This document shows positions 1,129-19,872 of a DNA stretch of 64,000 nt, in pieces. The stretch lies in the NCBI GenBank assembly GCA_963825545.1, contig CAWGTR010000006.1:223475-287474 (forward strand), read 5' to 3'. Within the stretch, counting starts at the first letter, position 1. Each line of letters begins with the position of its first letter. This DNA comes from an uncultured Chloroflexia bacterium (GTDB lineage Bacteria; Chloroflexota; Limnocylindria; Limnocylindrales; CSP1-4). Under the pieces are notes generated by a model. The model saw nothing but the letters and a program-made list of their open reading frames with translations, was not told the origin of the DNA and did not search any database. The position numbers and the translations under genes were made by a program.

Positions 1129-2231
1129 ATGGGTGCCGTCGAGGTCATCATCCTCCACCCGCTGCCGGGCCCGGCGAGCGGACCGCTCGAACGCGCCCTG
1201 GCTGAGACACGCGCCGAGGTAGCCGAGCGGAACCGGGCCGGGTTCGAGCCGCCGGGGCCGCCCGGGTCACGATCGTCGGCGGCGCTCCCGACGGCCGCCC
1301 GTTCGGATCCCGCCTGCCCGAGCTGCTCGCCACGGTCCGCCGCGGCCACGGGCTCGTCCTCCTGGGGTCGGGGGCGCTGCCGCTGGCGACGACCACCGAT
1401 CGCCGGGCGTTCGTCGCCGCGGCGGCCGCGGCCGCGCCTCGGGCGCTCGCGAACAACCGCTACTCCGCCGACGTCGTTGCAGTCTCCGCGTCGACGCTTC
1501 CCATCCTCGCCCGTCTGCCGCGCGAGTTCCCGGCCGACAACGCGCTGCCGCGCTGGCTGGTGGAGATCGGCGCAGTGCCGGTCGAAGACCTGCGGCGGCG
1601 CTGGCGGCTGGCGGTCGACCTCGACTCGCCACTCGATGCGATCCTCGTCGCCGCCGCCCGACGCCCGGGTCGGTCGGACCCGTACGTGCCGGCTGAGCTG
1701 GGGGACCGCGGCGAGGCCGTCGTCGCGCGGATCGAACGGCTCCGGTCGATCCTCGCGGACGCGCGCGCCGAGCTCGTCGTGGCCGGCCGGACCTCCGCGG
1801 CCACGCTCGTCTGGCTGGAGCGCTCCGCGCGCTGCCGGATCCGGGCGGTCGTCGAGGAGCGTGGCCTCCGGGCGTCGAGCCGCCTGGCGCTCGGGCCGGC
1901 CAGCCGGGCGCCGGCCCGCCGCCCACGGTCGCTCCTGGCGATGGCGCTCGAGCACGACGGCCCGGCGGCGCTCGGAGCGCGGCTCGCCGAACTCGGTGAC
2001 GGCGCACTCGTCGACACCCGGGTCCTGCTGGCCGACCGGCTTGGTGCGGACGAGGCGGCCTGGCCGCGACCGGAAGCGCGCTACGCGTCGGACCTGCTCG
2101 ATGCGACGGCCGTCGGCGAGCCGTGGCTCGCGGCCCTGACCGCAGCGGCGGCCGGCGCGACGATCCCGATCCTCCTGGGCGGCCACTCGCTTGTCGGACC
2201 GGGCATCCGGTTGATCGGTTCGCGGCGCTGA
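1129..2231 (+). CDS. hypothetical protein; reading frame broken near 1250
   Basis: A protein-like N-terminus (MGAVEVIILHPLPGPASGPLERALAETRAEVAERNRAGFE) runs from ATG 1129 in one frame. The protein-like continuation (ARVTIVGGAPDGRPFGSRLPELLATVRRGHGLVLLGSGALPL...) lies in the -1 frame, which has no start codon before GTG 1560 and runs to TGA 2229-2231. The two frames meet at the G/C run around 1245-1262. Confidence 0.5.
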
Positions 2232-2233
2232 GG

Positions 2234-3451
2234 ATGGACGGGTTCGAGGCCGGCCTGCGGCGCGTCCCCGGGCCGGAGCCGCTGCCCGTCAAGGGCGAGC
2301 CACGGCTTGTCGAGCGGATCCGCGCCGAGATCGCTTCGACCGGGCCACTGACGTTCGACCGATTCATGGAGCTCGCGCTCTACGAGCCGGATCTCGGCTA
2401 CTACCGCTCGCCGGCCGAGCGACCCGGTCGGGGTGGCGACTTCCTCACCGCGCCCGAGACGCACCCGATCTTCGGGGCGACGCTCGCCCGTCAGCTCGAC
2501 GAGGTTTACCGGCGGCTCGGCTCGCCGGGCCGGTTCGTCGTCCGCGAGTACGGCGCCGGGTCGGGGACGCTCGGACTGACGATCCTCCAGGCGATCGCCG
2601 GCGAGGGCCGTCTCGGCGAGGTCGCCGCGTCCCCGGCGCTTGCCCGGGCGATCCGCTACGCCCCGGTCGAGATCAACCCCTACCGTCGGGCAGAGCTCAT
2701 CGATCGGCTCACGGGCGCCGGGTTCGGCGGCGCCCTCGAGCTCGACCTCACGCCCGGCGTCGCCGTGCCCGGGGCGGTCGTCGCCAACGAGTTCCTCGAC
2801 GCGCTGCCGGTCCATCGCGTCGTCGGCCGGGCGGGCGGTGTGCGCGAGCTCCGGGTCGACTGGGCGGGTGACGGGTTCGCCGAGGTCGAGGCGGACCCAT
2901 CGACCCCGGCGATCGAGGCGCGGCTCGCGGCGGAGGGGATCGTGCTCGAGGACGGCATCCGGGCGGAGGTCTGTCTCGCGATCGACGGCTGGGTGGACGA
3001 AGTCGCGGCCGGCCTGGAGGGCGGGATCGTCGTCGTAATCGACTACGGCCGGGTGGCGATCGAGCTGTACGGCAGGCAGCGCCCGGCGGGCACGCTGATG
3101 GCCTACGCCGGCCATCGCGCGCACGACGATTGGGCCGTCGCCGTGGGTCGCCAGGACCTGACCGCCCACGTCGACTTCAGCGCCGTCGAGCGGGCCGCCG
3201 GCGCGGTCGGGCTCGACCAGCTGGGGCTGACCACCCAGGCCGAGTTCCTCGTCGGGGCCGGGATCGAGGAGCTGCTCGAATCGATCCGCTCCGATCCGTC
3301 GACCACGATCGAGTCCTGGCTGGCCGTCCGCTCGGCCGTCCGGCGACTGCTCGATCCGCGCGCGACCGGTGGCTTCCGCGTGGCGTTGCTCGGTCGTGGG
3401 ATCCCGATCGAGCCAGCGCTGCACGGCCTCGCCTACCGCCTCGGGCGCTGA
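2234..3451 (+). CDS. MidA/NDUFAF7-family (DUF185) SAM-dependent methyltransferase
   Basis: GGDFLTAPETHPIFGATLARQLDEVY...VREYGAGSGTLGLTIL and the C-terminal DLTAHVDFS motif are typical of the family. ATG 2234 follows the upstream stop (TGAGGATG). The ORF-track start at 2123 lies inside the previous gene. Confidence 0.8.
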   Translation: MDGFEAGLRRVPGPEPLPVKGEPRLVERIRAEIASTGPLTFDRFMELALYEPDLGYYRSPAERPGRGGDFLTAPETHPIFGATLARQLDEVYRRLGSPGRFVVREYGAGSGTLGLTILQAIAGEGRLGEVAASPALARAIRYAPVEINPYRRAELIDRLTGAGFGGALELDLTPGVAVPGAVVANEFLDALPVHRVVGRAGGVRELRVDWAGDGFAEVEADPSTPAIEARLAAEGIVLEDGIRAEVCLAIDGWVDEVAAGLEGGIVVVIDYGRVAIELYGRQRPAGTLMAYAGHRAHDDWAVAVGRQDLTAHVDFSAVERAAGAVGLDQLGLTTQAEFLVGAGIEELLESIRSDPSTTIESWLAVRSAVRRLLDPRATGGFRVALLGRGIPIEPALHGLAYRLGR

Positions 3452-3659: not shown

Positions 3660-3779
3660 TGAGCGGCGTGGACCGCCCGGTCCCGTATGTCGTCCCGTGC
3701 CCGCACGGTTCCACATTCGCCGCGTCATGGAAACGCCGCCCAGCCGCCACAGCAAGCGGGGCGTGTCCGCGAGGTTGGA

Positions 3780-4136
3780 TTGACCGCCATCTGGTACGTC
3801 GTCGGGTTCGCCTTCGCCGGCGTCTCGTTCGTCCTGCTGACGATCGGCGCGGCCTGGCTGATCTCGCATCGGAACCGCGGGGACGAGCACAAGGGCCTCC
3901 CCTACGAGTCGGGGATCGACACCTTCGGCGACACCCACGGGCGGTTCGGGCTGTCGTTCTACATCTACGCCTTGCTGTTCGTGGCGTTCGACATCGAGGT
4001 GGTCTTCATCTACCTCTGGGCGATCGTCTTCCGGGATCTCCTCATCGGCGGCTTCGTGAGCATGCTCGTGTTCGTGGCGGTCCTGCTGCTCGGGCTGGCC
4101 TACGCCTGGCGGAAGGGCGTCCTCACGTGGCGCTGA
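3780..4136 (+). CDS. nuoA: NADH-quinone oxidoreductase subunit A
   Basis: Three TM segments plus YESGI...FDIEVVFIYLWA motifs. TTG 3780 is preceded by GAGG. The longer ORF-track start at 3687 adds a non-conserved leader. Confidence 0.85.
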   Translation: MTAIWYVVGFAFAGVSFVLLTIGAAWLISHRNRGDEHKGLPYESGIDTFGDTHGRFGLSFYIYALLFVAFDIEVVFIYLWAIVFRDLLIGGFVSMLVFVAVLLLGLAYAWRKGVLTWR

Positions 4137-4858
4137 AGGGCAACCCCCCGGCGGCGGACCTTCCCGCGCCGGCAGCGCCCGACGCAGCGACGAACGCGGT
4201 CGTGGTCGCCGGCGGGCGCGACCTGATCGTGCCGATCGTGGTCCCGAACACGCTCTGGGAATCGCCCACCACGGCGGCGTACGGCGGCCAGCCCGTCGGC
4301 GACACCCACCTGCGCGAGTTCGGGGCGACCGAGCTGGGGCGCCACGACGACGCCCGCTGGGGCGCCCTCGAGGTGATCCCGACGAAGGCGGACATCGTCC
4401 TCGACCTGATCCGGGCCAACAGCCTCTGGCCGCTGCTGTCGGGGCTGGCCTGCTGCGCGATCGAGATGATGTCGGCGGCGACCTCGAAGAACGACATGGA
4501 CCGCTGGGGCATGTTCCCGTTCCGGGCCAGCCCGCGCCAGGCCGACGTGCTGATCGTCGCCGGCACGCTGACGACGAAGATGGCCGGTCCGCTCATCCGC
4601 CTGTGGGAGCAGATGCCCGAGCCGAAGTGGTGTGTCGCGATGGGCGACTGCACCTGCTCGGGCGGCCGCTACAAGCGCAGCTACTCGACGATCCAGGGGA
4701 TCGACCGGGTCCTCCCGGTCGACGTCTACGTGCCCGGCTGCCCGCCCCGCCCGGAAGGGCTGATCTACGGGATGATGCGGCTCCAGCAGCTCGTCCTGGA
4801 GCGGCGCGGCCACTGGCCGGAGCGAGCGATCGGCCCGACGGTCCCGGACGGGGTCTGA
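4127..4858 (+). CDS. nuoB: NADH-quinone oxidoreductase subunit B (N2 cluster subunit) with an N-terminal extension
   Basis: SLWPLLSGLACCAIEMM, ASPRQADVLIVAGT, GDCTCSGG and VPGCPPRPE. GTG 4127 overlaps the nuoA stop. The start is uncertain because several in-frame GTGs lie downstream. Confidence 0.85.
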   Translation: MALKGNPPAADLPAPAAPDAATNAVVVAGGRDLIVPIVVPNTLWESPTTAAYGGQPVGDTHLREFGATELGRHDDARWGALEVIPTKADIVLDLIRANSLWPLLSGLACCAIEMMSAATSKNDMDRWGMFPFRASPRQADVLIVAGTLTTKMAGPLIRLWEQMPEPKWCVAMGDCTCSGGRYKRSYSTIQGIDRVLPVDVYVPGCPPRPEGLIYGMMRLQQLVLERRGHWPERAIGPTVPDGV

Positions 4859-4863
4859 GCGCG

Positions 4864-5416
4864 ATGGATCGAGCCCTCAAGCGCCGCCTCGAGGCCCGCT
4901 TCGGAGAGCGGCTGCTCGGACCCGTCCGGCAGCGCCACGACGAGACCGAGATCCGGGTCGCGCCGGGCGACCTGCCCGAGGTGATGCGCGCCCTCCACGA
5001 CGAGCCCGACCTGCGCTTCGAGTCGCTGATGGACCTGTGCGGCGTCGACACCGGGACCGCGATGCAGACGGTCTACCACCTGTGGAGCGCGCACCACCTC
5101 GGACTGGCTCCGGGTGATCGCCGACGGCCTGTCCCGCGACGAGCCTCGGGTCCCGTCGGTCACCTTCCTGTGGAAGGGCGCCGAGTGGCAGGAGCGCGAG
5201 GCGTACGACATGTTCGGGATCGCGTTCGAGGGGAACCGCGACCTGCGCCGGATCTATATGCCGCCGGACTACACGAGCTTCCCGCTGCGCAAGGACTTCT
5301 ACCTGCCCGATGACGCCGCCCGCTCGCCCGGCGGCGGTGTCCGCCAGATGGAGCAGACCCACGCCCCGACGAACGCCACGGCCGAGGCGGCCGTGCGCCG
5401 CGCCAAGGTGAGCTGA
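4864..5416 (+). CDS. nuoC: NADH-quinone oxidoreductase subunit C, interrupted by a +1 frame change near 5095
   Basis: The N-terminal part ([21 protein letters not shown]...[10 protein letters not shown]) is in the frame of ATG 4864. The conserved C-terminal part ([66 protein letters not shown]) is in the next frame, ending at 5416. Confidence 0.8.
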
Positions 5417-5426
5417 GGTCGATCGG

Positions 5427-6644
5427 ATGACCGTCGTTCGCCATCCGTCCGCCGACGACCCGCGGGTCATGCTCGACGAGGAGGTCGGGGTCTTCGAGCC
5501 CGTCCCGCCGTATCCCCCGCGGACCGAGCGTGAGGCCGAGTTCTACTCGCTCGGCGCGGGCGAGATGTTCATCAACATGGGGCCCCAGCACCCATCGACC
5601 CACGGCGTCCTGCGGGTCGTCCTCAAGATCGAGGGCGAGCGGGTCGTGGACCTCGACCCGGTCCTCGGCTACCTCCACCGCGGGGTCGAGAAGCTGTGCG
5701 AGAACGCCGACTACCACCACACGATCGCCTACACCGACCCGCTCGAGTACGTCAGCGCGCTGTTCAACGAATGGGCGCCGGTGATGGCCTTCGAGAAGCT
5801 GCTCGACGTCGAGGTGCCCCGCCGGGCCGAATACATCCGGGTCCTGTCCGGGGAGCTCAACCGGGTCGCCAGCCACGCCCTGTTCATGGGCTGGATGGCG
5901 CTCGACCTGGGCGGCCTCACCCCGATCCTGTGGAGCTTCATCGAGCGCGACGACATCGTCGACATGCTCGCCTCGCTGACCGGCCAGCGGATGCTCTTCA
6001 ACTACTTCCGGATCGGCGGCGTCAACGGCGACCTGAACCACGAGTTCATGAGCCGGCTCGGGACGTGGATGAGCAAGGCGACCGAGCAGATCGAGGCGAA
6101 CATCACGCTGCTCAACGAGAACGAGATCTTCGTCCGGCGGATGCGCGGCCTGGGAATCCTCGACCGTGAGACGGCCTTCCGGATGTGCATGACCGGCCCG
6201 AACATCCGCGCCTCGGGCGTGCCGCTCGACATGCGCCGCTCGCACCCGTACAGCGTTTACCCGGAGCTCGAGTTCGACATCCCGACCCGCCAGGAGGGCG
6301 ACTGCCTGGCGCGCTACCTCCTCCGCCTCGAGGAGATCAAGCAGAGCCTCCGGATCATCGACCAGTGCCTGAACCAGATGCCCGACGGGCCGATCATGGC
6401 CAAGCTGCCGCGGCTCATGCGACCCCGACCCGGGCGGGCCTACGCGGCCGTCGAGGGTCCGCGCGGCCAGTACGCGACCTATGCGATCAGTGACGGGACG
6501 GACCAGCCGTACCGGATGCGGATCCACGACCCGAGCTTCGTCCACCTCCAGGCCGTCGGGCTGCTGACGCCCGGCAACCTGATCGCCGACACGATGGCGA
6601 TCATGGCCTCGCTCGATCCGATCATGGGCGGCGTCGACAAGTAG
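5427..6644 (+). CDS. nuoD: NADH-quinone oxidoreductase subunit D
   Basis: NMGPQHPSTHGVLR, LGYLHRGVEKL and the C-terminal SLDPIMGGVDK. 405 aa. Confidence 0.95.
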   Translation: MTVVRHPSADDPRVMLDEEVGVFEPVPPYPPRTEREAEFYSLGAGEMFINMGPQHPSTHGVLRVVLKIEGERVVDLDPVLGYLHRGVEKLCENADYHHTIAYTDPLEYVSALFNEWAPVMAFEKLLDVEVPRRAEYIRVLSGELNRVASHALFMGWMALDLGGLTPILWSFIERDDIVDMLASLTGQRMLFNYFRIGGVNGDLNHEFMSRLGTWMSKATEQIEANITLLNENEIFVRRMRGLGILDRETAFRMCMTGPNIRASGVPLDMRRSHPYSVYPELEFDIPTRQEGDCLARYLLRLEEIKQSLRIIDQCLNQMPDGPIMAKLPRLMRPRPGRAYAAVEGPRGQYATYAISDGTDQPYRMRIHDPSFVHLQAVGLLTPGNLIADTMAIMASLDPIMGGVDK

Positions 6645-7991
6645 ATGACGATGCTCAGCCGCTCGTTCGGCCGCCTGACCCTGCCGGGCAAGATCATCTT
6701 CACGGTCGTCCCCCTCGTCCTCATCGTCGGCGGGGTGGCCACGGCGGCCGCGATCATCGCCGCGCCGCTCGTCATCGACTTCGTCGGGGCGAACCTGCCG
6801 CTCTTCCGGTTCGTGCTGGCGGCGACGGTCGTGCTGCTGATGACCGTCCCGACGGCGTTCCTGATCATCTACATGGAGATGAAGGTCATCGCCCTGATGA
6901 ACCTTCGCTACGGGCCGGACCGGGTGGGCCCGTTCGGCTCGCTCCTGTCGGTCGTGCACGGGCTCAAGGTCCTGATGAAGGAGGACTTCACCCCGACCGG
7001 TGCCGACTCGGTGGTCTTCACCTGGGCGCCGGTGGTCGTCTACATGGCCAGCGTGATGACCCTGCTGGTGCTGCCGTTCGCCCCGGGCCTGTTCGGGCAG
7101 GACCTCAACATCGGGCTGCTGTACTTCTTCGCGATGGGCGGGCTGGGCGTCGTCGGGCTGCTCATGGCCGGCTGGTCGAGCTTCAACAAGTACTCGCTGC
7201 TCGGCGGGCTGCGCTCGGCGGCGCAGGTCGTCAGCTACGAGATTCCGCTGACCCTGTCGGTCGTCGGGATCATCCTCCTTGCCGGGACCCTGAGCCTCAA
7301 CAAGATCACGCTCGACCAGTCCGGCAGCCTGTTCGACTGGTTCGTGTTCAAGCAGCCGCTGGCGTTCCTCATCTTCTTCATCGCCGCTACGGCCGAGGCC
7401 AACCGGACGCCGTTCGACCTGACCGAGGCCGACTCGGAGATCGTGGCCGGGTTCGCCACCGAGTACTCGGGGATGCGCTTCGGGTTCTTCTTCTTCGCCG
7501 AGTACGTGAACGTGTTCATCATCTCGGGGCTCACCGTCGCGCTCTTCTTCGGCGGCTGGAACGCCCCGTTCGACTGGCCCTGGCCGATCACGCCGCACCC
7601 GGATCCGGGCGGCATGGGGGTCGGCCTGCTCGTCGCCATCGGGCTCGTGCCGCCGATCCTGATCCTCGTCCTCGGGCTGCCGTTCTATCTCGTCAACAGC
7701 CGGACGAAGCTGTGGCAGGCCCTGGTGATCGGGTTCGTCCTGTTCAACGTCCTCGCGGTCGCCGCGCTCATCGGGCTTGCCTTCCTCAGCTTCGACTGGG
7801 TCGTCGGCCTGTTCTGGTTCCTGATGAAGACGTACGCCTTCGTGTTCATGTTCGTCTGGATGCGCGGCACGCTGCCGCGGGTCCGGATCGACCAGCTCAT
7901 GGGCTTCGCCTGGAAGTGGCTGCTGCCCGCCTCGCTGCTCAACCTGTTCGTGACCGCCCTGGCGATCGTGCTCGTCGAGGGCGTTCGATGA
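6645..7991 (+). CDS. nuoH: NADH-quinone oxidoreductase subunit H, enlarged (448 aa; extra N-terminal and internal TM segments)
   Basis: EMKVIALMNLRYGPDRVGPFG, AAQVVSYEIPL, AEANRTPFDLTEADSEIVAGFATEYSG and RGTLPRVRIDQLM. Confidence 0.9.
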   Translation: MTMLSRSFGRLTLPGKIIFTVVPLVLIVGGVATAAAIIAAPLVIDFVGANLPLFRFVLAATVVLLMTVPTAFLIIYMEMKVIALMNLRYGPDRVGPFGSLLSVVHGLKVLMKEDFTPTGADSVVFTWAPVVVYMASVMTLLVLPFAPGLFGQDLNIGLLYFFAMGGLGVVGLLMAGWSSFNKYSLLGGLRSAAQVVSYEIPLTLSVVGIILLAGTLSLNKITLDQSGSLFDWFVFKQPLAFLIFFIAATAEANRTPFDLTEADSEIVAGFATEYSGMRFGFFFFAEYVNVFIISGLTVALFFGGWNAPFDWPWPITPHPDPGGMGVGLLVAIGLVPPILILVLGLPFYLVNSRTKLWQALVIGFVLFNVLAVAALIGLAFLSFDWVVGLFWFLMKTYAFVFMFVWMRGTLPRVRIDQLMGFAWKWLLPASLLNLFVTALAIVLVEGVR

Positions 7992-8001
7992 GCGCCGGGC
8001 G

Positions 8002-8664
8002 ATGACGTTCGTCCCGGGCCTTGGCCTCGTCAAGGGGATGGCGCTGACCCTGCGCCGCTTCTTCGAGCCGAAGGTGACGAACCTGTACCCGGAGGTCCCC
8101 GCCCAGATCCCGCCCAAGTTCCGCGGCCGGCTGCAGCTCCTGTACGACGAGTGGGGCACGCTCAAGTGCGAGACCTGCTTCCAGTGCGCCCAGGCCTGCC
8201 CGATCGAGTGCATCGACATGGGCGGTACCGACACCAAGGGCCGTTACGCCGTCCACTGGGGGGCGCCCGAGACGTACGGCGAACGGCGCGAGGAGTCGGC
8301 CCTCCGGCGGTCGGGCCGGACCGTGCCCGACCCCGCTTACGAGCACTTCCACGGGATCGATCTGGCGGCCGTGGATGCCGTTCTCGACGAGGTCGACCAC
8401 GATCCGCGCGAGATGCTCCGGATCCTGGCCGCGATCCAGGACGCGTACGGCTACGTACCCGTGGCCGCGCTCAAGCGGGTCAGCGAGGCGACCGGCGCGT
8501 GGTACGCGATGCTGTATGGCACGGCGACCTACTACGACCACCTCGCGGTCGGGGCACGGGAGACGGCGCCGAGCGCCGACGACGCCTACGTCGGAGCGCT
8601 CGAGGGGGCCCTCCACGGTGGCATCGACGACGGGGCGGCGAGCCGGGACGCGGGCGCCCGATGA
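8002..8664 (+). CDS. nuoI: NuoI-like ferredoxin half fused to a NuoE N-terminal helical domain (I::E' chimera)
   Basis: The N-terminal half carries NLYPEVPAQIPPKFRGR and one CETCFQCAQACP motif, as in NuoI. The C-terminal half carries MLRILAAIQDAYGYVPVAALKRVSEATGAWYAMLYGTATYYDHL, as in the NuoE four-helix domain. I see only 5 Cys in total, no second CxxCxxCxxxCP, and no thioredoxin-like 2Fe-2S part. Confidence 0.75.
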   Translation: MTFVPGLGLVKGMALTLRRFFEPKVTNLYPEVPAQIPPKFRGRLQLLYDEWGTLKCETCFQCAQACPIECIDMGGTDTKGRYAVHWGAPETYGERREESALRRSGRTVPDPAYEHFHGIDLAAVDAVLDEVDHDPREMLRILAAIQDAYGYVPVAALKRVSEATGAWYAMLYGTATYYDHLAVGARETAPSADDAYVGALEGALHGGIDDGAASRDAGAR

Positions 8665-10004
8665 CCGGCCTCCTGAAGACTCCGACCGGCTGGCCGAAGG
8701 TCCTCATCGAGTCGCCCCAGGCCGTCGACCCGACCGACCTCGATCGAGCCGTCCGCGATGGCGCCTTCGAGGCGCTCCGGACCGCGGTCCGGGCGATGAC
8801 CCCGAGCCAGGTCATCGGGGCGGTGGTCGGCTCCGGCCTGCGCGGTCGCGGCGGCAGCGGCTTCCCGACCGGGGCGAAGTGGCGGGTCGCGGCGAGCGCC
8901 CCCGGACCCACCCGCTACGTCGTCGCCAACGGCTACGGCGCCGACCCGGCGGTCCAGACCGACCGGACGCTCATGGAGCTGGCCCCGTATGCCGTGGTCG
9001 AGGGGGTCGCCCTGGCGGCCTATGCGATCGGGGCCGGCGAGGCGATCATTGCCGTCCGGGCCGATGCCGCCGAGGCGATCCGCCGGCTTGACGCGGCGAT
9101 CGGCGCCGCCGAGGAGGCCGGCTTCGCGGGGCCCGACGTCCTGGAGTCCGGCTGGGACCTGTCGATCCAGGTCCGCCCCGTCCAGGGTGCCTACATGCTC
9201 GGCGAGGAGACCGTCCTGCTCAAGGCGCTCGAGGGCAAGCGGGGCCAGCCCGAGCAGCGGCCGCCGCACCCGGCGGAGCGCGGGCTGTTCGGCCGCCCGA
9301 CGGTCGTCGACAACGTCCAGACCCTGGCGAGCGTGCCCTGGATCGTCCGCAACGGACCCGAGGCATACGCCGCGATCGGCTCGACGGCGAGCCCAGGGAC
9401 GATCCTCGTCCAGCTCCGCGCGCCGGCCGGCGGTGGGATCGCCGAGGTGCCGCTCGGGACCCCGCTCCGGGAGCTCATCGCGCTCGCCGGCCCGCGGGCC
9501 GGCCGATCGGACGGCGGCCGGCCGGTCAAGGCGGTCCTCGTCGGCGGACCCGCGGGTGGGTTCCTGCCGGCGGACCTGCTCGACACGCCGTTCGACTTCG
9601 AGTCGCTCCGCGACGTCGGGGCGCACGTCGGATCCGGCTCCATCGTCGTCGCCGACGACCGGGCCTGCGTCGTCGACCTGGCCCGGCTGCTCAGCCGCTT
9701 CTGCGCCGATCAGGCCTGTGGCAAGTCGATCCCCTGCCGGATCGGCACCCGTCGCCTGTCCGAGATCGCCGACCGGATCGCGGTCGGCACGCCGCGCCCG
9801 ACCGATGCCGGGCTGGCCGCCGACCTGGCCGCCGACATCCAGGGTTCCGGCCTGTGCGACCACGAGCGGCTGGCGACGCTGCCGATGACCAGCGCGATGC
9901 GATACTTCCGTGCCGAGCTCGACGACCATCTCCTCCGCAGCACCTGCCCCGCCGGCGTCTGCCACCCGATCAAGGTGGCCGTCGGGGCCGACCGAGGCGC
10001 TTGA
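8661..10004 (+). CDS. nuoF: divergent NuoF-like flavoprotein subunit (F')
   Basis: GLRGRGGSGFPTGAKW and GAYMLGEETVLLKALEG are present. ATG 8661 overlaps the upstream stop (ATGA). The dinucleotide-site segment reads ANGYGADPA rather than CNADE-type, and the N3 region reads FCADQACGKSIPC...GLC. Confidence 0.8.
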   Translation: MTGLLKTPTGWPKVLIESPQAVDPTDLDRAVRDGAFEALRTAVRAMTPSQVIGAVVGSGLRGRGGSGFPTGAKWRVAASAPGPTRYVVANGYGADPAVQTDRTLMELAPYAVVEGVALAAYAIGAGEAIIAVRADAAEAIRRLDAAIGAAEEAGFAGPDVLESGWDLSIQVRPVQGAYMLGEETVLLKALEGKRGQPEQRPPHPAERGLFGRPTVVDNVQTLASVPWIVRNGPEAYAAIGSTASPGTILVQLRAPAGGGIAEVPLGTPLRELIALAGPRAGRSDGGRPVKAVLVGGPAGGFLPADLLDTPFDFESLRDVGAHVGSGSIVVADDRACVVDLARLLSRFCADQACGKSIPCRIGTRRLSEIADRIAVGTPRPTDAGLAADLAADIQGSGLCDHERLATLPMTSAMRYFRAELDDHLLRSTCPAGVCHPIKVAVGADRGA

Positions 10005-12640
10005 TGACCGACCTGATCGTCCGACCCGAAGGCGCCCCGCCCGCCGAGCCGGGCGTCGCCGAGACCCTCGCGGAGCGACTGCTCGACGTGTCGGCGCCGC
10101 AGCGCCCGATGAGCGCCCCGGTGATCCGGATCGAGGTCGACGGGCGGGTCGTCGAGGGTCGCGACGGCCAGACGATCCTCGAGGTCTGCCGCGACAACGG
10201 GATCGAGGTCCCGACGCTGTGCTACGAGCCGAAGCTGCCCGGCTTCGGCGCCTGCCGGATGTGCGTCGTCGAGGTCGAGGGCGAAGAGCACCCGCCGATC
10301 AGCTGCTCGCGCGCGGCAGAGGCCGGCATGAAGGTCCAGACCCAGACCGACGAGGTGCGCCGCCTGCGGGCCACGAACCTCGAGCTGATCTTCAGCGACC
10401 ACAACGCCTACTGCCTGCCGCCCTGCCAGAACAAGTGCCCGAGCCACATCGACATTCCCGGCTTCCTCAAGCAGAACGCCGAGGGCGAGTGGCGCGAGTC
10501 GACCCGGATCTTCAAGCGGACGATCCCCTTCCCGAGCGTGCTCGGACGGGTCTGCCCGGCGCCGTGCGAGGAGCACTGCCGGCGCGACGAGGTCGATGAG
10601 GCGATCGCCATCCGTGACAGCCACCGCTACGCCGGGGACCAGGTCATCAAGGCGATGCTCGACGACGGGATCGACCCGCCGCTGCCATTCGAGCCCCAGC
10701 CGAAGACGGGTCGCCGGGCGGCCGTCATCGGGTCCGGCCCGGCCGGGATGAGCGCCGCCTACTACCTCCTCCTGGCCGGTCACGACGTGACCGTCTTCGA
10801 GCGCGACCCGGCGCCCGGCGGGATGCTCCGCTACGGGATCCCGCAGTACCGGCTCCCGAAGATCGAGGTCCTCGAGGCGGAGTACGAGTCGGTCAGCCGG
10901 CTGGGCGGGAAGATCGTATGCAACCAGGCCCTCGGGCGCGACTTCACCCTCGACGACCTCCAGGGCCAGGGCTACGACGCCGTCCTGGTGGCGATCGGCT
11001 GCTACGACACGAACAAGCTGGGCATCCCGAACGAGGACGCCGACGGCGTCATCGACGGCCTCGAATACCTCCAGACGGCCACCCTCGGCCTGCCCTACCC
11101 CGGGCACCGCGGGAAGCGCGTCGTCGTGATCGGCGGGGGGTTCACCTCGATGGACTGCTCGCGGACGTCGATCCGCCAGGGTGCCGCCGAGGTGACCCTC
11201 GTCTATCGCCGGGACATGAAGGACATGCCCGCCTCGAACGAGGTCCACGAGGCGATCGAGGAAGGCGTCCAGGCGATCTTCCAGGCCGCCCCGACGCGGG
11301 TCATCGTCGACGAGAAGACCGGCCGGGTGAGCGGCGTCGAGTTCATCCGCAACAAGCTCGGCGAGCCCGACGCGTCGGGCCGGCGGCGGCCCGAGCCGTC
11401 GCCCGGCACGGAGTTCACAATCGATTGCGACCGGGTCCTCCTGGCGATCGGCCAGGGCCCCGACCTGACCTGGATCGGGCCGGGCTCGGAGGGTCCCGAG
11501 GCGACGAAGCAGCGCCGGCTGAAGGCCGACCCGGTGACGTTCGAGACCGGACGGCCCGGCGTGTTCGGGACCGGCGACGTGCGGGTCGGCGCGGCCACCG
11601 TCGTCCAGGCGATCGCCGAGGGCCGCCGGGCGTCGTACGCCGCGGACGCCTACCTGCGTGGGATGGACCTCGGGACGATCCGGGCCCGCCAGACGCTCGC
11701 CGAGCCGCAGCCCGAGTTCCTGTCGATCGTGCCATTTACGAGCGAGGTCAAGGAACCCCGCTACCGGCTCAAGGCGATGGACGCCGAGGTCCGCAACAAG
11801 AGCTACCTCGAGTACGAGATCCCGTACACCCCCGCGGAGGCGGTCGCGGAGTCGACCCGCTGCCTGCAGTGCACCTGCGAGGCGATTGGGTTCTGCGACC
11901 TGCGCCGGCTCGGAATCGAGTACGGGACGACACTGCGCACGCTCGAGCCGCAGTTCCACCAGGGCGCGGGCTACCGGAGCGTCACCGAGAACCGCTTCAC
12001 CGGGATCAACCACGACTACGTGCGCGACGACAGCCACGCCTTCATCCTCCGCGAGCCGTCGCGCTGCATCGACTGCGGCCGCTGCGCCCAGGTCTGCTCC
12101 GAGGTCGTCGGGGCCGCCTGCTACGACTTCATGCGGATCGGCTTCGACACGCTCGTGACGACCCCGCTCGACATGAGCCTCAACGACACCCCGTGCGTGT
12201 CCTGTGGGCGCTGCGCCGAGACCTGCCCGACCGGGGCGCTGATGCCGAAGCCACGGGTGCTCGAGAAGTACGAGGTCGACGAGAGCCGCTGCATCCTGTG
12301 CGGGATCTGCGTCGATGCCTGTCCGTACGACGCCCTCCGCGACGGCGCCGACTTCGAGCTCAGCCACGTCGATCGCTCCGAGCCGATGGTCGACCTGATC
12401 GCCCTGGCGGCCATCGACCGGGAGACGGAGGCGACCTACATCCGCCGCGAGCGCGACTGGGTCGCCCGCGCCACCGCCGCCGGGCGTCCACCGGATCCGT
12501 CGCGCCTCCTGCCGGTCCTGCCGCCATCCGTCACCGGGGGCGGGGCGGGCCTGGCCGCCGCGCGCCACGGAGAGCGAACGGGCGGCAACGGCGCCTCCGG
12601 CAACGGCGCGGCCGGCGCCGGCCACGCCCATCACGAGTAG
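10004..12640 (+). CDS. NuoG-type Fe-S protein with an inserted GltD-like FAD/NAD(P)H oxidoreductase module and no molybdopterin-like domain (G'::GltD)
   Basis: Domain order: a 2Fe-2S motif (CYEPKLPGFGACRMCVVEVEG...ISC); GltD-type Fe-S sites (YCLPPCQNKCPSHIDIPGFLK, GRVCPAPCEEHC); GxGxxG sites (AVIGSGPAGMSAAYYL, VVVIGGGFTSMD); then CIDCGRCAQVC, CVSCGRCAETCPTGAL and CILCGICVDACPYDAL. The start overlaps the nuoF' stop (TGATG). Confidence 0.8.
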   Translation: MTDLIVRPEGAPPAEPGVAETLAERLLDVSAPQRPMSAPVIRIEVDGRVVEGRDGQTILEVCRDNGIEVPTLCYEPKLPGFGACRMCVVEVEGEEHPPISCSRAAEAGMKVQTQTDEVRRLRATNLELIFSDHNAYCLPPCQNKCPSHIDIPGFLKQNAEGEWRESTRIFKRTIPFPSVLGRVCPAPCEEHCRRDEVDEAIAIRDSHRYAGDQVIKAMLDDGIDPPLPFEPQPKTGRRAAVIGSGPAGMSAAYYLLLAGHDVTVFERDPAPGGMLRYGIPQYRLPKIEVLEAEYESVSRLGGKIVCNQALGRDFTLDDLQGQGYDAVLVAIGCYDTNKLGIPNEDADGVIDGLEYLQTATLGLPYPGHRGKRVVVIGGGFTSMDCSRTSIRQGAAEVTLVYRRDMKDMPASNEVHEAIEEGVQAIFQAAPTRVIVDEKTGRVSGVEFIRNKLGEPDASGRRRPEPSPGTEFTIDCDRVLLAIGQGPDLTWIGPGSEGPEATKQRRLKADPVTFETGRPGVFGTGDVRVGAATVVQAIAEGRRASYAADAYLRGMDLGTIRARQTLAEPQPEFLSIVPFTSEVKEPRYRLKAMDAEVRNKSYLEYEIPYTPAEAVAESTRCLQCTCEAIGFCDLRRLGIEYGTTLRTLEPQFHQGAGYRSVTENRFTGINHDYVRDDSHAFILREPSRCIDCGRCAQVCSEVVGAACYDFMRIGFDTLVTTPLDMSLNDTPCVSCGRCAETCPTGALMPKPRVLEKYEVDESRCILCGICVDACPYDALRDGADFELSHVDRSEPMVDLIALAAIDRETEATYIRRERDWVARATAAGRPPDPSRLLPVLPPSVTGGGAGLAAARHGERTGGNGASGNGAAGAGHAHHE

Positions 12641-12652
12641 GGAGGAGCGCGG

Positions 12653-13204
12653 GTGCCGATCCCGGACACGATCCCGGTCATCGGGGCGACTTGGAACGAC
12701 GCCCTGTTCGTGATCTTCGCCGGGATCCTCCTCGGATCCGGGCTGCTCGTCGTCACCCTCCGCGACATCATCCGCTGCGGGCTGGCGATGATCGTCTGCT
12801 TCGGCGCCCTGGCCGGCATCTACGTCATCCTCGGCGCACCGCTCATCGCCGGGGCCCAGGTGCTCGTCTACATCGGCGCGATCAGCGTGCTCATCCTGTT
12901 CGCCATCATGCTCACCCAGACGAAGGCCGCCCCGGCCCGCCTCGTGTTCCAGACCCAGGCGGTCCCGGCGGCGATCGCCGCGCTCGTCCTGGCAGTGATC
13001 CTCGCGCTCGTGGTCGTGTCGACGGACTGGGGTGCCGCGGCGGCGGTCGCGCGGACGGCGACGGACGACATGGCCCGCCTCCTGTTCCACGACTATGTCC
13101 TGCCGTTCGAGGTCGTGAGCGTCCTGCTCCTCGCGGCGGTCGTCGGCGGGGTCTACCTTGCCAAGCGCGAGGTCGACGCGACCGAGGAGCGCGGCCCGCG
13201 ATGA
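12653..13204 (+). CDS. nuoJ: NADH-quinone oxidoreductase subunit J
   Basis: GTG follows GGAGGAG. TM-rich, with AGAQVLVYIGAISVLILFAIML and a C-terminal GGVYLAKRE. Confidence 0.9.
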   Translation: MPIPDTIPVIGATWNDALFVIFAGILLGSGLLVVTLRDIIRCGLAMIVCFGALAGIYVILGAPLIAGAQVLVYIGAISVLILFAIMLTQTKAAPARLVFQTQAVPAAIAALVLAVILALVVVSTDWGAAAAVARTATDDMARLLFHDYVLPFEVVSVLLLAAVVGGVYLAKREVDATEERGPR

Positions 13205-13512
13205 CGAACTCCCTCGATGCCTACCTGATCCTGTCCGGCCTGCTGTTCTGCCTCGGGACCTTCGGCTTCCTTGCCCGCCGCAACGCGATCAGCATGCTCA
13301 TGTCGATCGAGCTGATGCTCAACGCCGTCAACCTCTCGATCGTCGCCTTCGGGGCGTTCGTGCCCAAGCTCCAGGGCCAGGGCTCGATCATCGCCCTGGT
13401 GGTGATGGCCGTGGCGGCGGGTGAGGCGACGGTCGGGCTGGCCATCGTCATGGCGATCTTCCGCAACCGGCGGACGCCGCTCGTCGACGAGTACGACTCG
13501 ATGCGGCAGTAA
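13201..13512 (+). CDS. nuoK: NADH-quinone oxidoreductase subunit K
   Basis: ATGA overlap with nuoJ. LMSIELMLNAVNLSIVAF...AAGEATVGLAIVMAIFRNRRT. Confidence 0.95.
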   Translation: MTNSLDAYLILSGLLFCLGTFGFLARRNAISMLMSIELMLNAVNLSIVAFGAFVPKLQGQGSIIALVVMAVAAGEATVGLAIVMAIFRNRRTPLVDEYDSMRQ

Positions 13513-13516
13513 GCCG

Positions 13517-15487
13517 ATGCCGTACGACGCGCTGATCGTCGCCATCCCGGCGCTGCCGATCGCCGGCTTCGCCTTCACCGCCCTGTTCGGCCGGCGCATC
13601 CAGGCGCGGCTCGGCCGGAACGCGGCCAGCGCCGTCCCGCTCGCCGTGGTGATCCTGAGCTGGCTGGCGGCGATGATCGTCGTGGTCCCCGCGCTCGGGC
13701 ATGCCGAGCCATTCGGCGAGCGCGGTCTCGACTTCACGCTGTACACCTGGATCCCGGCCGGGAACTTCGTCGTCGACGTCGGGTTCCACGTCGACGCCCT
13801 GACGGCCTGCCTCCTGATCGTGGTGACGACGATCGGGATGCTCGTCCACGTCTACTCGGTCGGGTACATGGCCCACGACCCCGGGACGTGGCGGTTCTTC
13901 GCCTACCTCAACCTGTTCATGTTCTCGATGCTGCTGCTCGTGCTGGCCGACAGCTTCCTCGTGATCTTCGTGGCCTGGGAGCTGGTCGGGCTGTCGAGCT
14001 ACCTGCTGATCGGGTTCTGGTACCGCAAGCCGACCGCGGCGCTCGCCGCGAAGAAGGCGTTCATCGTCAACCGTGTCGGGGACGTCGGCTTCGCGCTCGG
14101 GATCATGCTCATCTTCGTGAGCCTCGGGACGCTCAACGTCCAGGCGGTGCTCGGGTCGATCGGGACGCTCGACCAGTTCACGATCGTGGCCATCGCGCTG
14201 CTCGTGTTCTGTGGCGCAGTCGGCAAGAGCGCCCAGTTCCCGCTCCACGTCTGGCTGCCCGACGCGATGGAGGGCCCGACCCCCGTCTCGGCGCTGATCC
14301 ATGCCGCGACGATGGTCAACGCCGGGGTCTACCTGATCGCGCGGGTCAACCCGATCTTCGGCCACGCCCAGGGCGCGATGGTCGTGGTGGCGGCGATCGG
14401 GATCTTCACCGCGCTGCTCGCCGCGTCGATCGCGTTCACCCAGACCGACATCAAGCGCGTCCTCGCCTACTCGACGTTGTCCCAGCTCGGCTACATGTTC
14501 GCCGCGCTCGGCGTCGGCGCCTGGATCGGCGCCATCTTCCACCTCATGGCCCACGGTTTCTTCAAGGGCCTCCTGTTCCTCGATTCGGGGTCGGTGATCC
14601 ACGCCGTCCACGAGGAGCAGGACATGCGCCGGATGGGCGGGCTGTGGCGCAAGATCCCGATCACGTACTGGACGATGCTCATCGGCGCGCTGGCGATCTC
14701 GGGGATCCCGCCGCTGGCCGGCTTCTTCAGCAAGGACGAGATCCTCGGCGAGGCGTTCAAGAACGGCTTCCTCGTCGTCTGGGCGATCGGCTTCGCGGTC
14801 GCCGGGATGACCGCCTTCTACATGTTCCGGCTGATGGGGATGACCTTCTGGGGCCCGAGCCACGTCGACCCGAAGGTGGAGCCCACGATCCATGAGTCGC
14901 CCCGCTCGATGACCGTGCCGCTCATCCTGCTGGCGATCGCGTCGATCTTCCTCGGGCTCGTGATCGGCGTGCCGCTCGGTGCCGGCCTGATCAACACCTG
15001 GCTCGAGCCGGTGTTCGCCGAGACGATCGCGCTGACTGGCGGCGAGGCGGCTCCGTTCGGCCCGCTTGACGTAGCCCTGATCCTGGCCAGCGTGTCGATC
15101 GCGACGATCGGGATCATCGTCGCCTGGCGCTTCTTCGGGGTCGAGCTCGGCGCCCTCCGCCGCGCTCCGCGGCCGAAGGAGGTCACGGCGATCGCCACGG
15201 CCAGCCCCCTGACCCGGTTCCTCTACCGCGCTTCGCTCAACAAGTGGTGGTTCGACGACCTCAACGACCTGTTGTTCATCCGGATCGGCGGGCGGATCGC
15301 GGCCGCGGCCTGGTGGTTCGACCGGACGATCATCGACGGCACGGTCAACGAGATCGGCACAATCGCTGTCGGCGTCGGCCGGGAGCTGCGCCGGGTCCAG
15401 ACCGGTCGGGTCCAGAACTACGCCCTCGGGATCGCCATCGGGCTGATCGTGATGGCCGGCTCGTACCTCGTGATCGTGGGGCGCTGA
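13517..15487 (+). CDS. nuoL: NADH-quinone oxidoreductase subunit L
   Basis: WELVGLSSYLLIGFW, KSAQFPLHVWLPDAMEGPTPVSALIHAATMV and YSTLSQLGYMF. 656 aa. Confidence 0.95.
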   Translation: MPYDALIVAIPALPIAGFAFTALFGRRIQARLGRNAASAVPLAVVILSWLAAMIVVVPALGHAEPFGERGLDFTLYTWIPAGNFVVDVGFHVDALTACLLIVVTTIGMLVHVYSVGYMAHDPGTWRFFAYLNLFMFSMLLLVLADSFLVIFVAWELVGLSSYLLIGFWYRKPTAALAAKKAFIVNRVGDVGFALGIMLIFVSLGTLNVQAVLGSIGTLDQFTIVAIALLVFCGAVGKSAQFPLHVWLPDAMEGPTPVSALIHAATMVNAGVYLIARVNPIFGHAQGAMVVVAAIGIFTALLAASIAFTQTDIKRVLAYSTLSQLGYMFAALGVGAWIGAIFHLMAHGFFKGLLFLDSGSVIHAVHEEQDMRRMGGLWRKIPITYWTMLIGALAISGIPPLAGFFSKDEILGEAFKNGFLVVWAIGFAVAGMTAFYMFRLMGMTFWGPSHVDPKVEPTIHESPRSMTVPLILLAIASIFLGLVIGVPLGAGLINTWLEPVFAETIALTGGEAAPFGPLDVALILASVSIATIGIIVAWRFFGVELGALRRAPRPKEVTAIATASPLTRFLYRASLNKWWFDDLNDLLFIRIGGRIAAAAWWFDRTIIDGTVNEIGTIAVGVGRELRRVQTGRVQNYALGIAIGLIVMAGSYLVIVGR

Positions 15488-15491
15488 GCCG

Positions 15492-17039: not shown

Positions 17040-17046
17040 GCGGGCG

Positions 17047-18552: not shown

Positions 18553-19485
18553 TCAACCGGCCTCGGCTTCGATCGTACTGGCGACCAGCGACAGGACGCG
18601 TGCCGCGTCGTGCGGCGTGGCCAGGAAGCCGTCGGCGCGCTCCACGACCTCCGGCGGCGTCTCGTAGGCGCCGTGCACGGCGAGCGCGAGGCCCTGGGGC
18701 AGCCGGCCGGCGGCCCGCGCCTCGGCGATCGCGGCGAAGGCCTCGGCGTCGCTCCGGTCGTCGCCGAGGACGATCGCGGCACCGAACGGCCGGCTCGCCA
18801 GGAGCCGGGCGACCGCCGCTCCCTTCCCCCCGGCACCGGCCGGACGGAGCTCGACGATCCGGCGGCCGCGGAAGCGGGTGAGACGGTCGTGCCCGGTCTC
18901 GGGACCGAGCACCCGGTCCAGGGCGGCCTCGACCGACCGACCGGCGACGTCGGGATCCGGCGCGGCGCGGAAGTGGAACGCGACGGATGGGCCCTTGTCC
19001 TCGACGTACAGCCAGGCCGGCGAGCCAAGCTCACGGGCGACGGCCGTCCCGACCTCACGGGCGACGGCCGTCCCGACCTCGCGGGCGAGAGCCGTCGTCG
19101 CGTCGAGCGCCGGGTCCACGGCCAGCGACAGGCCGGCGATCCGGCCGCCCCTGGCCAGCCGCCCCTCCTGGAGCCCGTGGTCGCCGAGGTAGCCGACGCC
19201 ACCGACCCGGACCCGGGCGACGAGATCGGCCACCGTCCGTCCGCTCAGGACGACGACGCCCAGGCGCGCCGGTCGCGCGTCCGCGAGCCGGGCCAGCCGG
19301 CGCAGGGCGGTCCGCCCGAGCGGATCGATGGCCGCCGCCATCGGGTCGGGTGAGACCCGGGCGAGGGTCCCGTCGAAATCGGTCACGACCAGGAGCGGAC
19401 CGGGCGCCGCGGCGACGGCCCGGACAAGTCCGCGGATGTTCGGCCAGGGCTCTACCGGTGGGCCGGCCGCCGCGGCCGGGTTCAG
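18553..19485 (-). CDS. otsB: trehalose-6-phosphate phosphatase (HAD-IIB) domain region; no usable start codon in its own frame
   Basis: LLVVTDFDGTLARV, VVLSGRTV and LGDDRSDAEAF are HAD motifs. Upstream of the HAD motif this frame has no ATG/GTG/TTG until 19827, and that stretch is Arg-rich junk overlapping a better frame. Confidence 0.7.
   Translation of the reverse strand: MNPAAAAGPPVEPWPNIRGLVRAVAAAPGPLLVVTDFDGTLARVSPDPMAAAIDPLGRTALRRLARLADARPARLGVVVLSGRTVADLVARVRVGGVGYLGDHGLQEGRLARGGRIAGLSLAVDPALDATTALAREVGTAVAREVGTAVARELGSPAWLYVEDKGPSVAFHFRAAPDPDVAGRSVEAALDRVLGPETGHDRLTRFRGRRIVELRPAGAGGKGAAVARLLASRPFGAAIVLGDDRSDAEAFAAIAEARAAGRLPQGLALAVHGAYETPPEVVERADGFLATPHDAARVLSLVASTIEAEAG
19030..19101. 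repeat. 24-bp tandem duplication inside otsB (2 perfect units plus 1 degenerate)
   Basis: CTCACGGGCGACGGCCGTCCCGAC occurs at 19030-19053 and 19054-19077, followed by a diverged third unit. It encodes AREVGTAV-AREVGTAV-ARELG. Confidence 0.85.
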
Positions 19486-19805: not shown

Positions 19806-19872
19806 GGCGGGAGGGTACCAGTACCATGCGGCCGCGGCGCCCTCATCGGGGAACGGCTAGGATGACGGCCCC

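Follow-up and report, generated by a model that had tools for sequence, protein, structure and literature searches.

The complex I operon in a 64-kb stretch of contig CAWGTR010000006.1, from an uncultured Chloroflexia bacterium, raises the question of where its NuoI subunit is encoded. In this stretch, hereafter the window (base composition 71% G+C), the operon lies on the + strand from 3687 to 18519 with the gene order nuoA-B-C-D-H-p1-nuoF-p3-nuoJ-K-L-M-N. The genes nuoE, nuoF and nuoG are absent between nuoD and nuoH, a conventional nuoI is absent between nuoH and nuoJ, and no canonical nuoI or nuoE was found within the 64-kb window. The space between nuoH and nuoJ is taken by a cassette of three genes, i.e., the open reading frame (ORF) p1 of 220 residues (8002-8664), a gene for a NuoF-like flavoprotein, and the 878-residue ORF p3 (10004-12640); the NuoE- and NuoG-type parts of the cassette are called E' and G'. 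A preliminary description took p1 for a chimera of half a NuoI and the helical domain of NuoE in which the rest of NuoI was missing. We consider it probable that p1 is one piece of a two-chain NuoI, that the cassette is nested within nuoI, and that the complex is a non-bifurcating, dual-input NADH/NADPH:quinone oxidoreductase. Taken by itself, the architecture of a split NuoI enclosing a fused Nfn-like module is very likely, and for the dual-input, non-bifurcating function the domain content suggests about an even chance.

Domain composition of p1

The ORF p1 can be divided into four segments:

8002..8244, + strand: p1 residues 1-81, NuoI N-half; NuoI models match it with their first half only
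8245..8355, + strand: p1 residues 82-118, family-specific linker (RYAVHWGAPETYGERREESALRRSGRTVPDPAYEHFHG) with no counterpart in canonical NuoI or NuoE
8356..8544, + strand: p1 residues 119-181, NuoE/NfnC-type N-terminal four-helix domain (E'), from PF01257, AlphaFold and Foldseek
8545..8664, + strand: p1 residues 182-220 and stop, poorly conserved Cys-free tail (identity 29-82%; ratio of nonsynonymous to synonymous substitution rates, dN/dS, 0.4-1.3)

The NuoI half comprises an N-terminal amphipathic helix, the YPE...FRGR segment, the motif C56/C59/C62/C66/P67, and the first strand of the inter-motif hairpin. Residues 9-81 match positions 13-86 of 180 in NF004536 (E 1.9e-15) and residues 12-77 match positions 1-65 of 121 in TIGR01971 (49.7 bits), while residues 23-86 of E. 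coli NuoI (7awt_I) match p1 with E 9.8e-12 and the mycobacterial, plant and Thermus NuoI align over the same stretch. There are five Cys in p1, four of them in CETCFQCAQACP (C56, C59, C62 and C66) and the fifth at C70, and none past residue 70. The protein thus holds one CxxCxxCxxxCP motif, where NuoI as defined by TIGR01971/PRK05888 has two in one polypeptide. Throughout the family, relatives at ~30% identity included, the four motif Cys and the Pro do not vary.

The E' domain (p1 residues 125-181) matches only positions 2-58 of 145 in PF01257, with 30.1 bits at a gathering cut-off of 24.8. An alignment of 34 family sequences was used for the AlphaFold model of p1, in which only two parts are confident, the N-terminal helix and residues 120-180; the latter form four helices with a predicted local distance difference test score (pLDDT) of 80-96. 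In Foldseek, the modelled E' superposes on the N-terminal domain of NfnC (9bp5_C) with a root-mean-square deviation of 1.0 Å over 64 columns at 38% identity, and also on HydC, FdsG, StnA, and E. coli NuoE (7nz1_E, 2.4 Å). The partial matches to both profile families and the superposition on the N-terminal domains of NfnC and NuoE bear out the fusion that the preliminary description had read from this ORF, i.e., the NuoI N-half with one motif joined to a NuoE four-helix segment. By analogy with these proteins, E' is probably a docking element for the NuoF-like flavoprotein.

The tail occupies the place of the thioredoxin-like [2Fe-2S] domain of NuoE, and no PF01257 match extends past position 58. 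Among 80 p1 orthologues described below, 70 have no Cys after residue 100. Of the two domains of NuoE/HoxE/BfuC (PF01257, TIGR01958), p1 therefore has the N-terminal four-helix domain and lacks the thioredoxin-like four-Cys [2Fe-2S] (N1a/C1) domain, as had been stated earlier, and its tail appears to be a loosely constrained remnant.

The second half of NuoI

The ORF p3 is composed as follows:

10004..12247, + strand: p3 residues 1-748, NfnA-like electron-input/wire protein (G'), with Fer2_4, Fer4_20, Pyr_redox_2 and Fer4_Nqo3
12248..12493, + strand: p3 residues 749-830, NuoI C-half, from NuoI models, PDB NuoI chains and the profile of joined halves
12494..12640, + strand: p3 residues 831-878 and stop, low-complexity Gly/Ala-rich tail seen in the translation and not conserved in distant relatives

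In the preliminary description a NuoE-like segment took the place of the second NuoI motif; our analysis locates that motif in trans, where it forms the C-terminal end of p3. When all six frames of the 64 kb were scanned, only four CxxCxxCxxxC motifs were detected, at nt 8167, 12065, 12194 and 12290, of which three fall at the C-terminal end of p3. The same scan, together with the five Cys of p1 at 56-70, excludes a second four-Cys motif in p1 and one hidden in another frame by a frameshift. The NuoI C-half of p3 consists of the second hairpin strand (RVLEKYEVDESRC), the motif C763/C766/C769/C773/P774, and a NuoI-type FEL... C-terminal segment. Residues 751-796 of p3 match positions 71-116 of 121 in TIGR01971, which is the part that p1 lacks. 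When the last 129 residues of p3 were searched alone, NuoI models ranked ahead of generic ferredoxin models (TIGR01971 72-116, E 8.8e-12, 44.7 bits), and the matches to PDB NuoI chains ran past the Cys motif into the NuoI-specific segment, e.g., residues 93-152 of 163 in 8qby_I. The last motif of p3 was also considered as an ordinary third ferredoxin motif of HoxU/HydA type, which was rejected on this ranking and on the extension of the match into the NuoI C-terminal segment.

Joined in silico (p1 1-87 and p3 from 749), the two halves match TIGR01971 positions 1-116 of 121 in one stretch with 101 bits. A profile of the joined halves, made from the natural p1/p3 pairs of 17 genomes, matches 27 solved NuoI/TYKY/Nqo9 sequences with 87-118 bits, always in two stretches that are collinear with the solved chains. 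In 9f5x_G, profile positions 9-80 correspond to TYKY residues 85-156 and positions 127-180 to residues 159-212. The two stretches adjoin in the solved chain and stand 46 positions apart in the profile, and the linker of p1 sits in this gap. Because the stretches abut in the solved chain, the break in NuoI appears to lie at the tip of the beta-hairpin that joins its two cluster motifs; in the hairpin alignment, '...IDMGGTDTKG' of p1 corresponds to '...ITIEAEERED' and RVLEKYEVDESRC of p3 to RRTTRYDIDMTKC.

The location is likewise that of nuoI, between nuoH and nuoJ: the gene with the N-half begins 11 nt past nuoH and the gene with the C-half stops 13 nt ahead of nuoJ. The resulting order D-H-[I-N+E']-F-[G'+I-C]-J differs from the layout with separate NuoE, F, G and I subunits and nuoEFG between nuoD and nuoH. 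The best 120 matches in a search with the joined construct were all p1-family proteins, and neither a canonical NuoI nor an unsplit close relative was among them.

Of the three motifs of p3, A (C688) and B (C731) align to the complete two-cluster HydA-type domain of NfnA. Since these two already pair, motif C (C763) is left an orphan, and so is the one motif in p1. The ligands of each cluster in a 2x[4Fe-4S] ferredoxin fold are three Cys from one motif and a fourth from the other, so the simplest view of the two orphan motifs is that they complement each other and restore N6a and N6b, and both clusters are expected in the two-chain NuoI. Judged by ligand motifs, N1a would be the only canonical cluster without a site here. 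The large C-terminal domain of NuoG, which carries N7 in the enzymes that have this cluster, is also absent.

Conservation and selection

The search for the same fusion in databases, which the preliminary description had proposed, gave 2901 proteins matching p1. The best 120 of them are all 193-252 residues long and at least 68% identical, and those with an organism name come from Chloroflexota or Candidatus Limnocylindrales. A scan of one genome per species yielded at least 514 confirmed p1 matches. The best 80 of these loci, all with at least 66% identity and almost all labelled Chloroflexota, Chloroflexia or Limnocylindria, were used for synteny, and distant relatives were collected individually. 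All 80 loci share the order nuoD-nuoH-p1-nuoF-p3-nuoJ-nuoK within the reach of their contigs. The genes nuoJ and nuoK are syntenic in 64 of the 80, which is every locus with a long enough contig, and p3 with the NuoI C-half is found in all 65 loci extending to it. The p1 orthologue has 217-256 residues and one motif in 76/80 loci. In the other four, the p1 frame continues into NuoF (571-691 residues), which is either a real E'-F fusion or the loss of a stop codon through insertions or deletions (indels) in metagenome-assembled genomes (MAGs).

In pairwise comparisons of p1 with ten orthologues, dN/dS is mostly about 0.1-0.27 in the NuoI half; the linker has 0.03-0.17, E' 0.05-0.46, and the tail 0.4-1.3. 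The values for residues 1-181 are well below 1, therefore this part of p1 appears to be functional and under purifying selection. The linker (including ...HWGAPETYGERREESALRRSGRTVPD...) is the most constrained segment of p1; the close clade shows no variation in many of its columns, and the AlphaFold confidence for it is low.

Relationship of the cassette to NfnABC and StnABC

The G' part of p3 begins with a 2Fe-2S domain (~36-130), followed by a GltD/NfnL-type domain for flavin adenine dinucleotide (FAD) and NAD(P)H with two [4Fe-4S] clusters (~131-600), a four-Cys site at C620-C631, and a HydA/HoxU-type 2x[4Fe-4S] domain. The model NF009454 spans residues 41-701 with 541 bits, below its cut-off of 916. 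The best solved relative of p3 is NfnA of Caldicellulosiruptor (9bov_A; 554 bits), with a reported match of residues 40-795 to 3-722; beyond the CPTGA motif (~746 of p3) NfnA runs into an Fdh-like domain, and the NfnA-like part of p3 is 40-746. The domain order of NfnA/StnC-type (PRK12814-like) proteins, i.e., 2Fe-2S, GltD/NfnL-type and HydA-type clusters, is kept in p3. Their C-terminal Fdh/NuoG-like (molybdopterin-fold) domain is lacking, as p3 stops ~130 residues past the HydA-type domain and this stretch is the NuoI C-half. The VYRRD segment of p3, after the second Rossmann motif, presumably corresponds to the NADPH-specific signature of GltD/NfnL proteins, which it resembles.

For NuoF, the best solved relative is the core of C. 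saccharolyticus NfnB (9bov_B), with 378 bits over NfnB residues 106-525, compared with 315-355 bits for HydB-type proteins and at most 273 bits for canonical NuoF. The protein has the site for flavin mononucleotide (FMN) and NAD(H) and the N3/B1 [4Fe-4S] site, is without the cluster domains that NfnB has at its N- and C-termini, and carries no extra Pfam domains. As far as sequence and modelled structure indicate, the nearest solved relatives of all three cassette proteins belong to NfnABC/StnABC. The cassette would then be an NfnABC/StnABC-type unit without the C-terminal domain of NfnC that holds the C1 [2Fe-2S] cluster, the terminal domains of NfnB, and NfnA's Fdh-like domain. Because these are lacking, the cassette falls outside the Bfu family, which is defined by the extra domains B2-B5 of BfuB and the C1 flavobicluster of BfuC (PMC9304861 and PMC11829005).

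According to the cryo-electron microscopy of NfnABC, FMN, B1 and C1 form the minimal bifurcation site and the ferredoxin branch needs the C-terminal domain of NfnB (PMC11829005). Both C1 and this NfnB domain are missing from the cassette, hence the elements of bifurcation and of the ferredoxin branch are absent. In the same complex, the GltD-type domain is the NADPH site and the N-terminal domain of NfnC forms a wedge with NfnA on one side and the Rossmann fold of NfnB on the other (PMC11829005). The part of NfnC that survives in p1 would be exactly this anchoring piece. The tethering of the flavoprotein at the NuoI position, which the preliminary description had proposed, is thus reasonable; the accompanying removal of at least two canonical clusters is not supported, because the second half of NuoI is on p3.

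Distant relatives and origin

Distant members were sought by an exhaustive search of 50%-identity cluster representatives. Full-length distant p1 members have 25-45% identity, and where the organism is named it belongs to Chloroflexota or Limnocylindria. The distant loci (L082, L084, L085/86 and L087; ~30% identity) differ in layout, and all of them pair a p1-like protein with a G'-like protein that ends in the NuoI C-half. All eight NuoI Cys are invariant in the relatives, as are the Cys and Pro of the C-half, L082, L084, L085 and L087 included.

L082 (4481-12281) and L085/86 (L085 4693-12917) have the order nuoABCDH-p1-F-G' with no nuoJKLMN next to it, and their antiporter-like subunits are either encoded elsewhere or absent. 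The genes that follow in L082 are unrelated, among them those for flavin reductase and 2-oxoacid:ferredoxin oxidoreductase. In L084 (1321-6023), p1 contains a complete NuoE with four Cys, the 1048-residue NuoF has a thioredoxin-like N-terminal domain and a C-terminal GltD domain, and the NuoI C-half forms the end of a 265-residue HoxU-like protein whose His-ligated cluster motif is intact and whose gene is followed by nuoJKLMN; from its domain content this locus resembles a less reduced state of the module. L087 (3216-10321), in a Limnocylindria MAG, has the order nuoB-nuoD-p1-like-NuoF-G'-Methyltransf_28 with nuoA, C, H and J-N not nearby, and may encode a soluble relative in which a split NuoI forms the bridge from the Nfn-like module to a pair of NuoB and NuoD.

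Across the family, the NuoE part is complete (P0240, P0243), has a degenerate thioredoxin-like domain that has lost its Cys (P0128, P0151, P0239), or is truncated (the window, P0121, P0199). All distant layouts keep the split while the NuoE part varies, therefore the split NuoI appears to be the old, defining trait and the loss of N1a in the clade of the window to be later. Without the cassette, the operon reads nuoABCDH-I-JKLMN, which is the 11-subunit 'ancestral' layout. The simplest history would be that an Nfn/Stn-like operon with the order E-F-G was inserted in the codons of the nuoI hairpin loop, with in-frame fusion at both ends. More broadly, complex I may have gained an NAD(P)H-oxidizing module a second, independent time, by the entry of a trimmed NfnABC-type operon into the nuoI surface loop of an 11-subunit-type core, to give a proton-pumping enzyme with the module threaded through a two-chain NuoI and oxidizing NADPH as well as NADH; we regard this wider proposition as evenly poised.

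Proposed function and alternative explanations

We hypothesize that a three-gene NAD(P)H-oxidizing cassette lies within nuoI of an 11-subunit-type operon, the upstream NuoI half being fused in frame to the E' domain, the downstream half to the C-terminus of the NfnA-like subunit, and NuoF standing between them. The NuoI halves would reassemble on NuoB/D/H of the Q-module as a normal 2x[4Fe-4S] NuoI with N6a and N6b, and E' would clamp NuoF, leaving the input module covalently stitched to NuoI at both ends. There would be two entry points for electrons, the FMN of NuoF for those of NADH and the FAD of the GltD-type domain for those of NADPH. Both routes would meet at the HydA-type clusters of G', from where the electrons would travel through N6a/N6b of the split NuoI and N2 to quinone; NuoL/M/N would couple quinone reduction to the pumping of protons. 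The core subunits A, B, C, D, H, J, K, L, M and N are encoded in the operon (nuoC interrupted by 1 nt), and NuoB carries the N2 ligand motifs CCAIEM, GDCTCSGG and GCPP, hence the membrane arm and the N2 site appear intact. The most likely function, as far as it can be read from the encoded domains, is that of a proton-pumping NADH/NADPH:quinone oxidoreductase.

Several observations weigh against this interpretation. The 101 bits of the joined NuoI halves are just below the TIGR01971 cut-off (113.05), p1 and the p3 fragment alone are also below it, and AlphaFold on the joined halves from the single sequence without an alignment gave a pLDDT of 41. The N3/B1 motif of NuoF (9699-9740, residues ~347-360) is FCxxxxCGK[ST]IPC and not the canonical CxxCxxC, i.e., it has lost the middle Cys and acquired one upstream; this variant, which suggests a ligand swap, is kept in 75 of the 78 NuoF orthologues recovered from the 80 loci, and the canonical form, ESCGECVPC, is seen in NuoF of the distant relative L082. 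For the linker, 37 residues long and strongly conserved, the interpretation offers no explanation. In the gene nuoC (~4864-5416), one extra G at 5085-5100 distributes the coding sequence over two frames; here the window has GCGCGCAC and the 97%-identical locus L001 has GCGC-CAC, with the gap also in seven further loci; since L001 has an intact nuoC, the extra base is probably an indel from assembly or sequencing and the gene not a true pseudogene. Moreover, all genomes examined (best 80 loci) are MAGs, and the substrates, the direction of electron flow and the lack of bifurcation are deduced from domain content only.

Closest to the preliminary description is the alternative that NuoI is a single-motif remnant, with at least N6b and N1a gone, the flavoprotein tethered at the NuoI position and the wire shortened. 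It would account for the single CxxCxxCxxxCP motif and the missing thioredoxin-like domain of p1, and the extra C70 could in principle be the fourth ligand of one cluster. However, C70 is replaced by Ala, Val or other residues in relatives, a lone motif in a ferredoxin fold gives one cluster just three ligands, and the second half of NuoI is present at the C-terminus of p3, where its Cys are invariant and it accompanies p1 in every locus extending there, which makes this alternative very improbable. That the fusion is an artefact or a sign of decay, i.e., a chimera made in assembly, the product of a frameshift, or a pseudogene within an operon that is degenerating, could be suspected from the 1-nt insertion in nuoC and from the MAG origin of the genome. 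We give it hardly any credence, as a p1 of 217-256 residues recurs in 76 of the 80 species loci with an in-frame NuoF fusion in the other four, 2901 proteins match it, and dN/dS over residues 1-181 is 0.03-0.46, while the nuoC insertion is unique to the window, being absent from L001 and the seven further loci, which suggests an error in sequencing or a lesion of very recent date.

The same split architecture could also serve a coupled chemistry, either as a membrane-bound NADPH/NAD(H) transhydrogenase with quinone as the third partner (con- or bifurcation at FMN) or in reverse, for NADPH synthesis from quinol and the proton-motive force. All three module proteins are nearest to the bifurcating NfnABC/StnABC, membrane-bound 'Nuo-Bfu' complexes have been proposed (PMC9304861), and the deep-branching L084 and P0240/P0243 retain a full four-Cys NuoE, with a thioredoxin-like N-terminal domain on NuoF of L084. 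The clade of the window, however, lacks the C1 [2Fe-2S] domain and both extra NfnB domains, which constitute the minimal flavobicluster and the ferredoxin branch (PMC11829005), and no ferredoxin-binding domain remains in the cassette. Its lineage has been described as aerobic (Ellin6529; 10.1101/2021.02.01.429150), and in an aerobe the oxidation of NAD(P)H by quinone needs no coupling. A coupled mode is thus unlikely for the window and more plausible for the deep-branching forms that keep C1.

Relation to known systems and significance

Canonical NuoI/Nqo9/TYKY (NDUFS8) shares with the split protein the N-terminal helix, YPE...RG, both motifs, the FE(L/F) segment and the coding place between nuoH and nuoJ; here, however, the protein is made of two polypeptides, with its halves fused to different subunits of the input module and ~4 kb of coding sequence between them. 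The 11-subunit 'ancestral' operons (nuoABCDHIJKLMN) have the same order apart from the cassette and an adjacent NDUFAF7-family gene, as reported in Actinomarina (10.1101/2021.02.01.429150), but their nuoI is intact and an NAD(P)H module of their own is lacking. Surveys of complex I variants list NuoCD and NuoBCD fusions and 11- to 14-subunit forms (10.1101/2025.03.13.643058). These fusions are also gene-structure variants of core subunits; they join whole subunits end to end, whereas here one subunit is split and its fragments are fused to another module.

The Bfu-family bifurcating transhydrogenases NfnABC/StnABC (9bov/9bp5, 9n5u, 8oh5) share with the cassette the domain order of the A subunit, the core of B, and the N-terminal domain of C. 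The cassette differs in the domains it lacks, i.e., C1, the NfnB terminal domains and the Fdh/NuoG-like domain of NfnA, and in its fusion to NuoI halves in a membrane complex I operon. Both the canonical NuoEFG N-module and 'Nuo-Bfu' (Geobacter and others), in which BfuABC was proposed in the usual EFG position (PMC9304861), place an E/F/G-type NAD(H) module on a NuoABCDHIJKLMN core. In those systems EFG is free and lies between nuoD and nuoH and NuoI is intact, whereas here the module lies inside nuoI and is fused to it; compared with NuoEFG, the E part of the cassette lacks the [2Fe-2S] cluster, the G part lacks the molybdopterin-like domain, and there is an additional GltD-type NADPH site.

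Among open-access papers and preprints, none was found that describes a split NuoI or the present operon, and within the limits of this literature the split NuoI with a nested Nfn-like module is an undescribed variant of complex I. Automated annotation names p1 'NAD(P)H-dependent oxidoreductase subunit E' or 'ferredoxin', and none of the names returned identifies a NuoI half. In metabolic reconstructions of Limnocylindria, complex I may for this reason seem to lack NuoI, NuoG and a proper NuoE. If the wider proposition of a second gain of an NAD(P)H-oxidizing module is correct, the locus would encode the main respiratory entry point of an abundant, uncultured class of soil and freshwater Chloroflexota, and a natural [4Fe-4S] ferredoxin fold assembled from two polypeptides. 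At least 514 matches to the family come from species-representative genomes of this environmentally abundant lineage.

To the old question of how the N-module came to be attached to the 11-subunit core, this family may offer a second docking solution. The graded intermediates, with NuoE full, degenerate or truncated and GltD on F or G, make the question tractable by comparative genomics and structure. The family would also provide natural tests of the dispensability of N1a and of the large C-terminal domain of NuoG, of NADPH as the driver of a proton-pumping complex I, and of a two-cluster ferredoxin domain that is split at its hairpin yet assembles, the last being relevant to the engineering of Fe-S proteins.

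Operon and genomic setting

The genes of the operon and the one directly upstream of nuoA are:

2123-3451, + strand: PF02636 (Methyltransf_28, NDUFAF7/MidA family) gene, directly upstream of nuoA
3687-4136, + strand: nuoA (Pfam Oxidored_q4)
ends 4858, + strand: nuoB (Pfam Oxidored_q6)
~4864-5416, + strand: nuoC, frameshifted in the present assembly and read from frames
5427-6644, + strand: nuoD (Pfam Complex1_49kDa)
6645-7991, + strand: nuoH (Pfam NADHdh)
8002-8664, + strand: p1, 220 residues, NuoI N-half, linker, E' and tail
8661-10004, + strand: NuoF/NfnB-like flavoprotein gene, 447 residues (PF01512 and PF10589)
10004-12640, + strand: p3, 878 residues, NfnA-like G' and NuoI C-half
12653-13204, + strand: nuoJ (Pfam Oxidored_q3)
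to 13512, + strand: nuoK (ORF and translation)
to 15487, + strand: nuoL (ORF and translation)
15492-17039, + strand: nuoM (ORF and translation)
17047-18519, + strand: nuoN (ORF and translation)

The cassette genes overlap, p1 and nuoF by ATGA (8661-8664) and nuoF and p3 by TGATG (10002-10006), as expected of co-translated partners (translational coupling). The PF02636 gene is found at the same place in 53 of the 54 loci with enough flank. The NDUFAF7/MidA family includes a mitochondrial assembly factor of complex I that methylates NDUFS2. The nuoH product has 448 residues, and its PF00146 match (298 profile positions) covers 378 of them; NuoH may therefore carry ~80 residues of insertion and an N-terminal extension, perhaps with extra transmembrane segments.

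The genes flanking the operon are ordinary:

458-1081, - strand: HPPK (folK)
18553-19827, - strand: trehalose-phosphatase-domain protein gene
19873-20583, + strand: sortase-domain protein gene
20627-21928, - strand: CorA Mg2+ transporter gene

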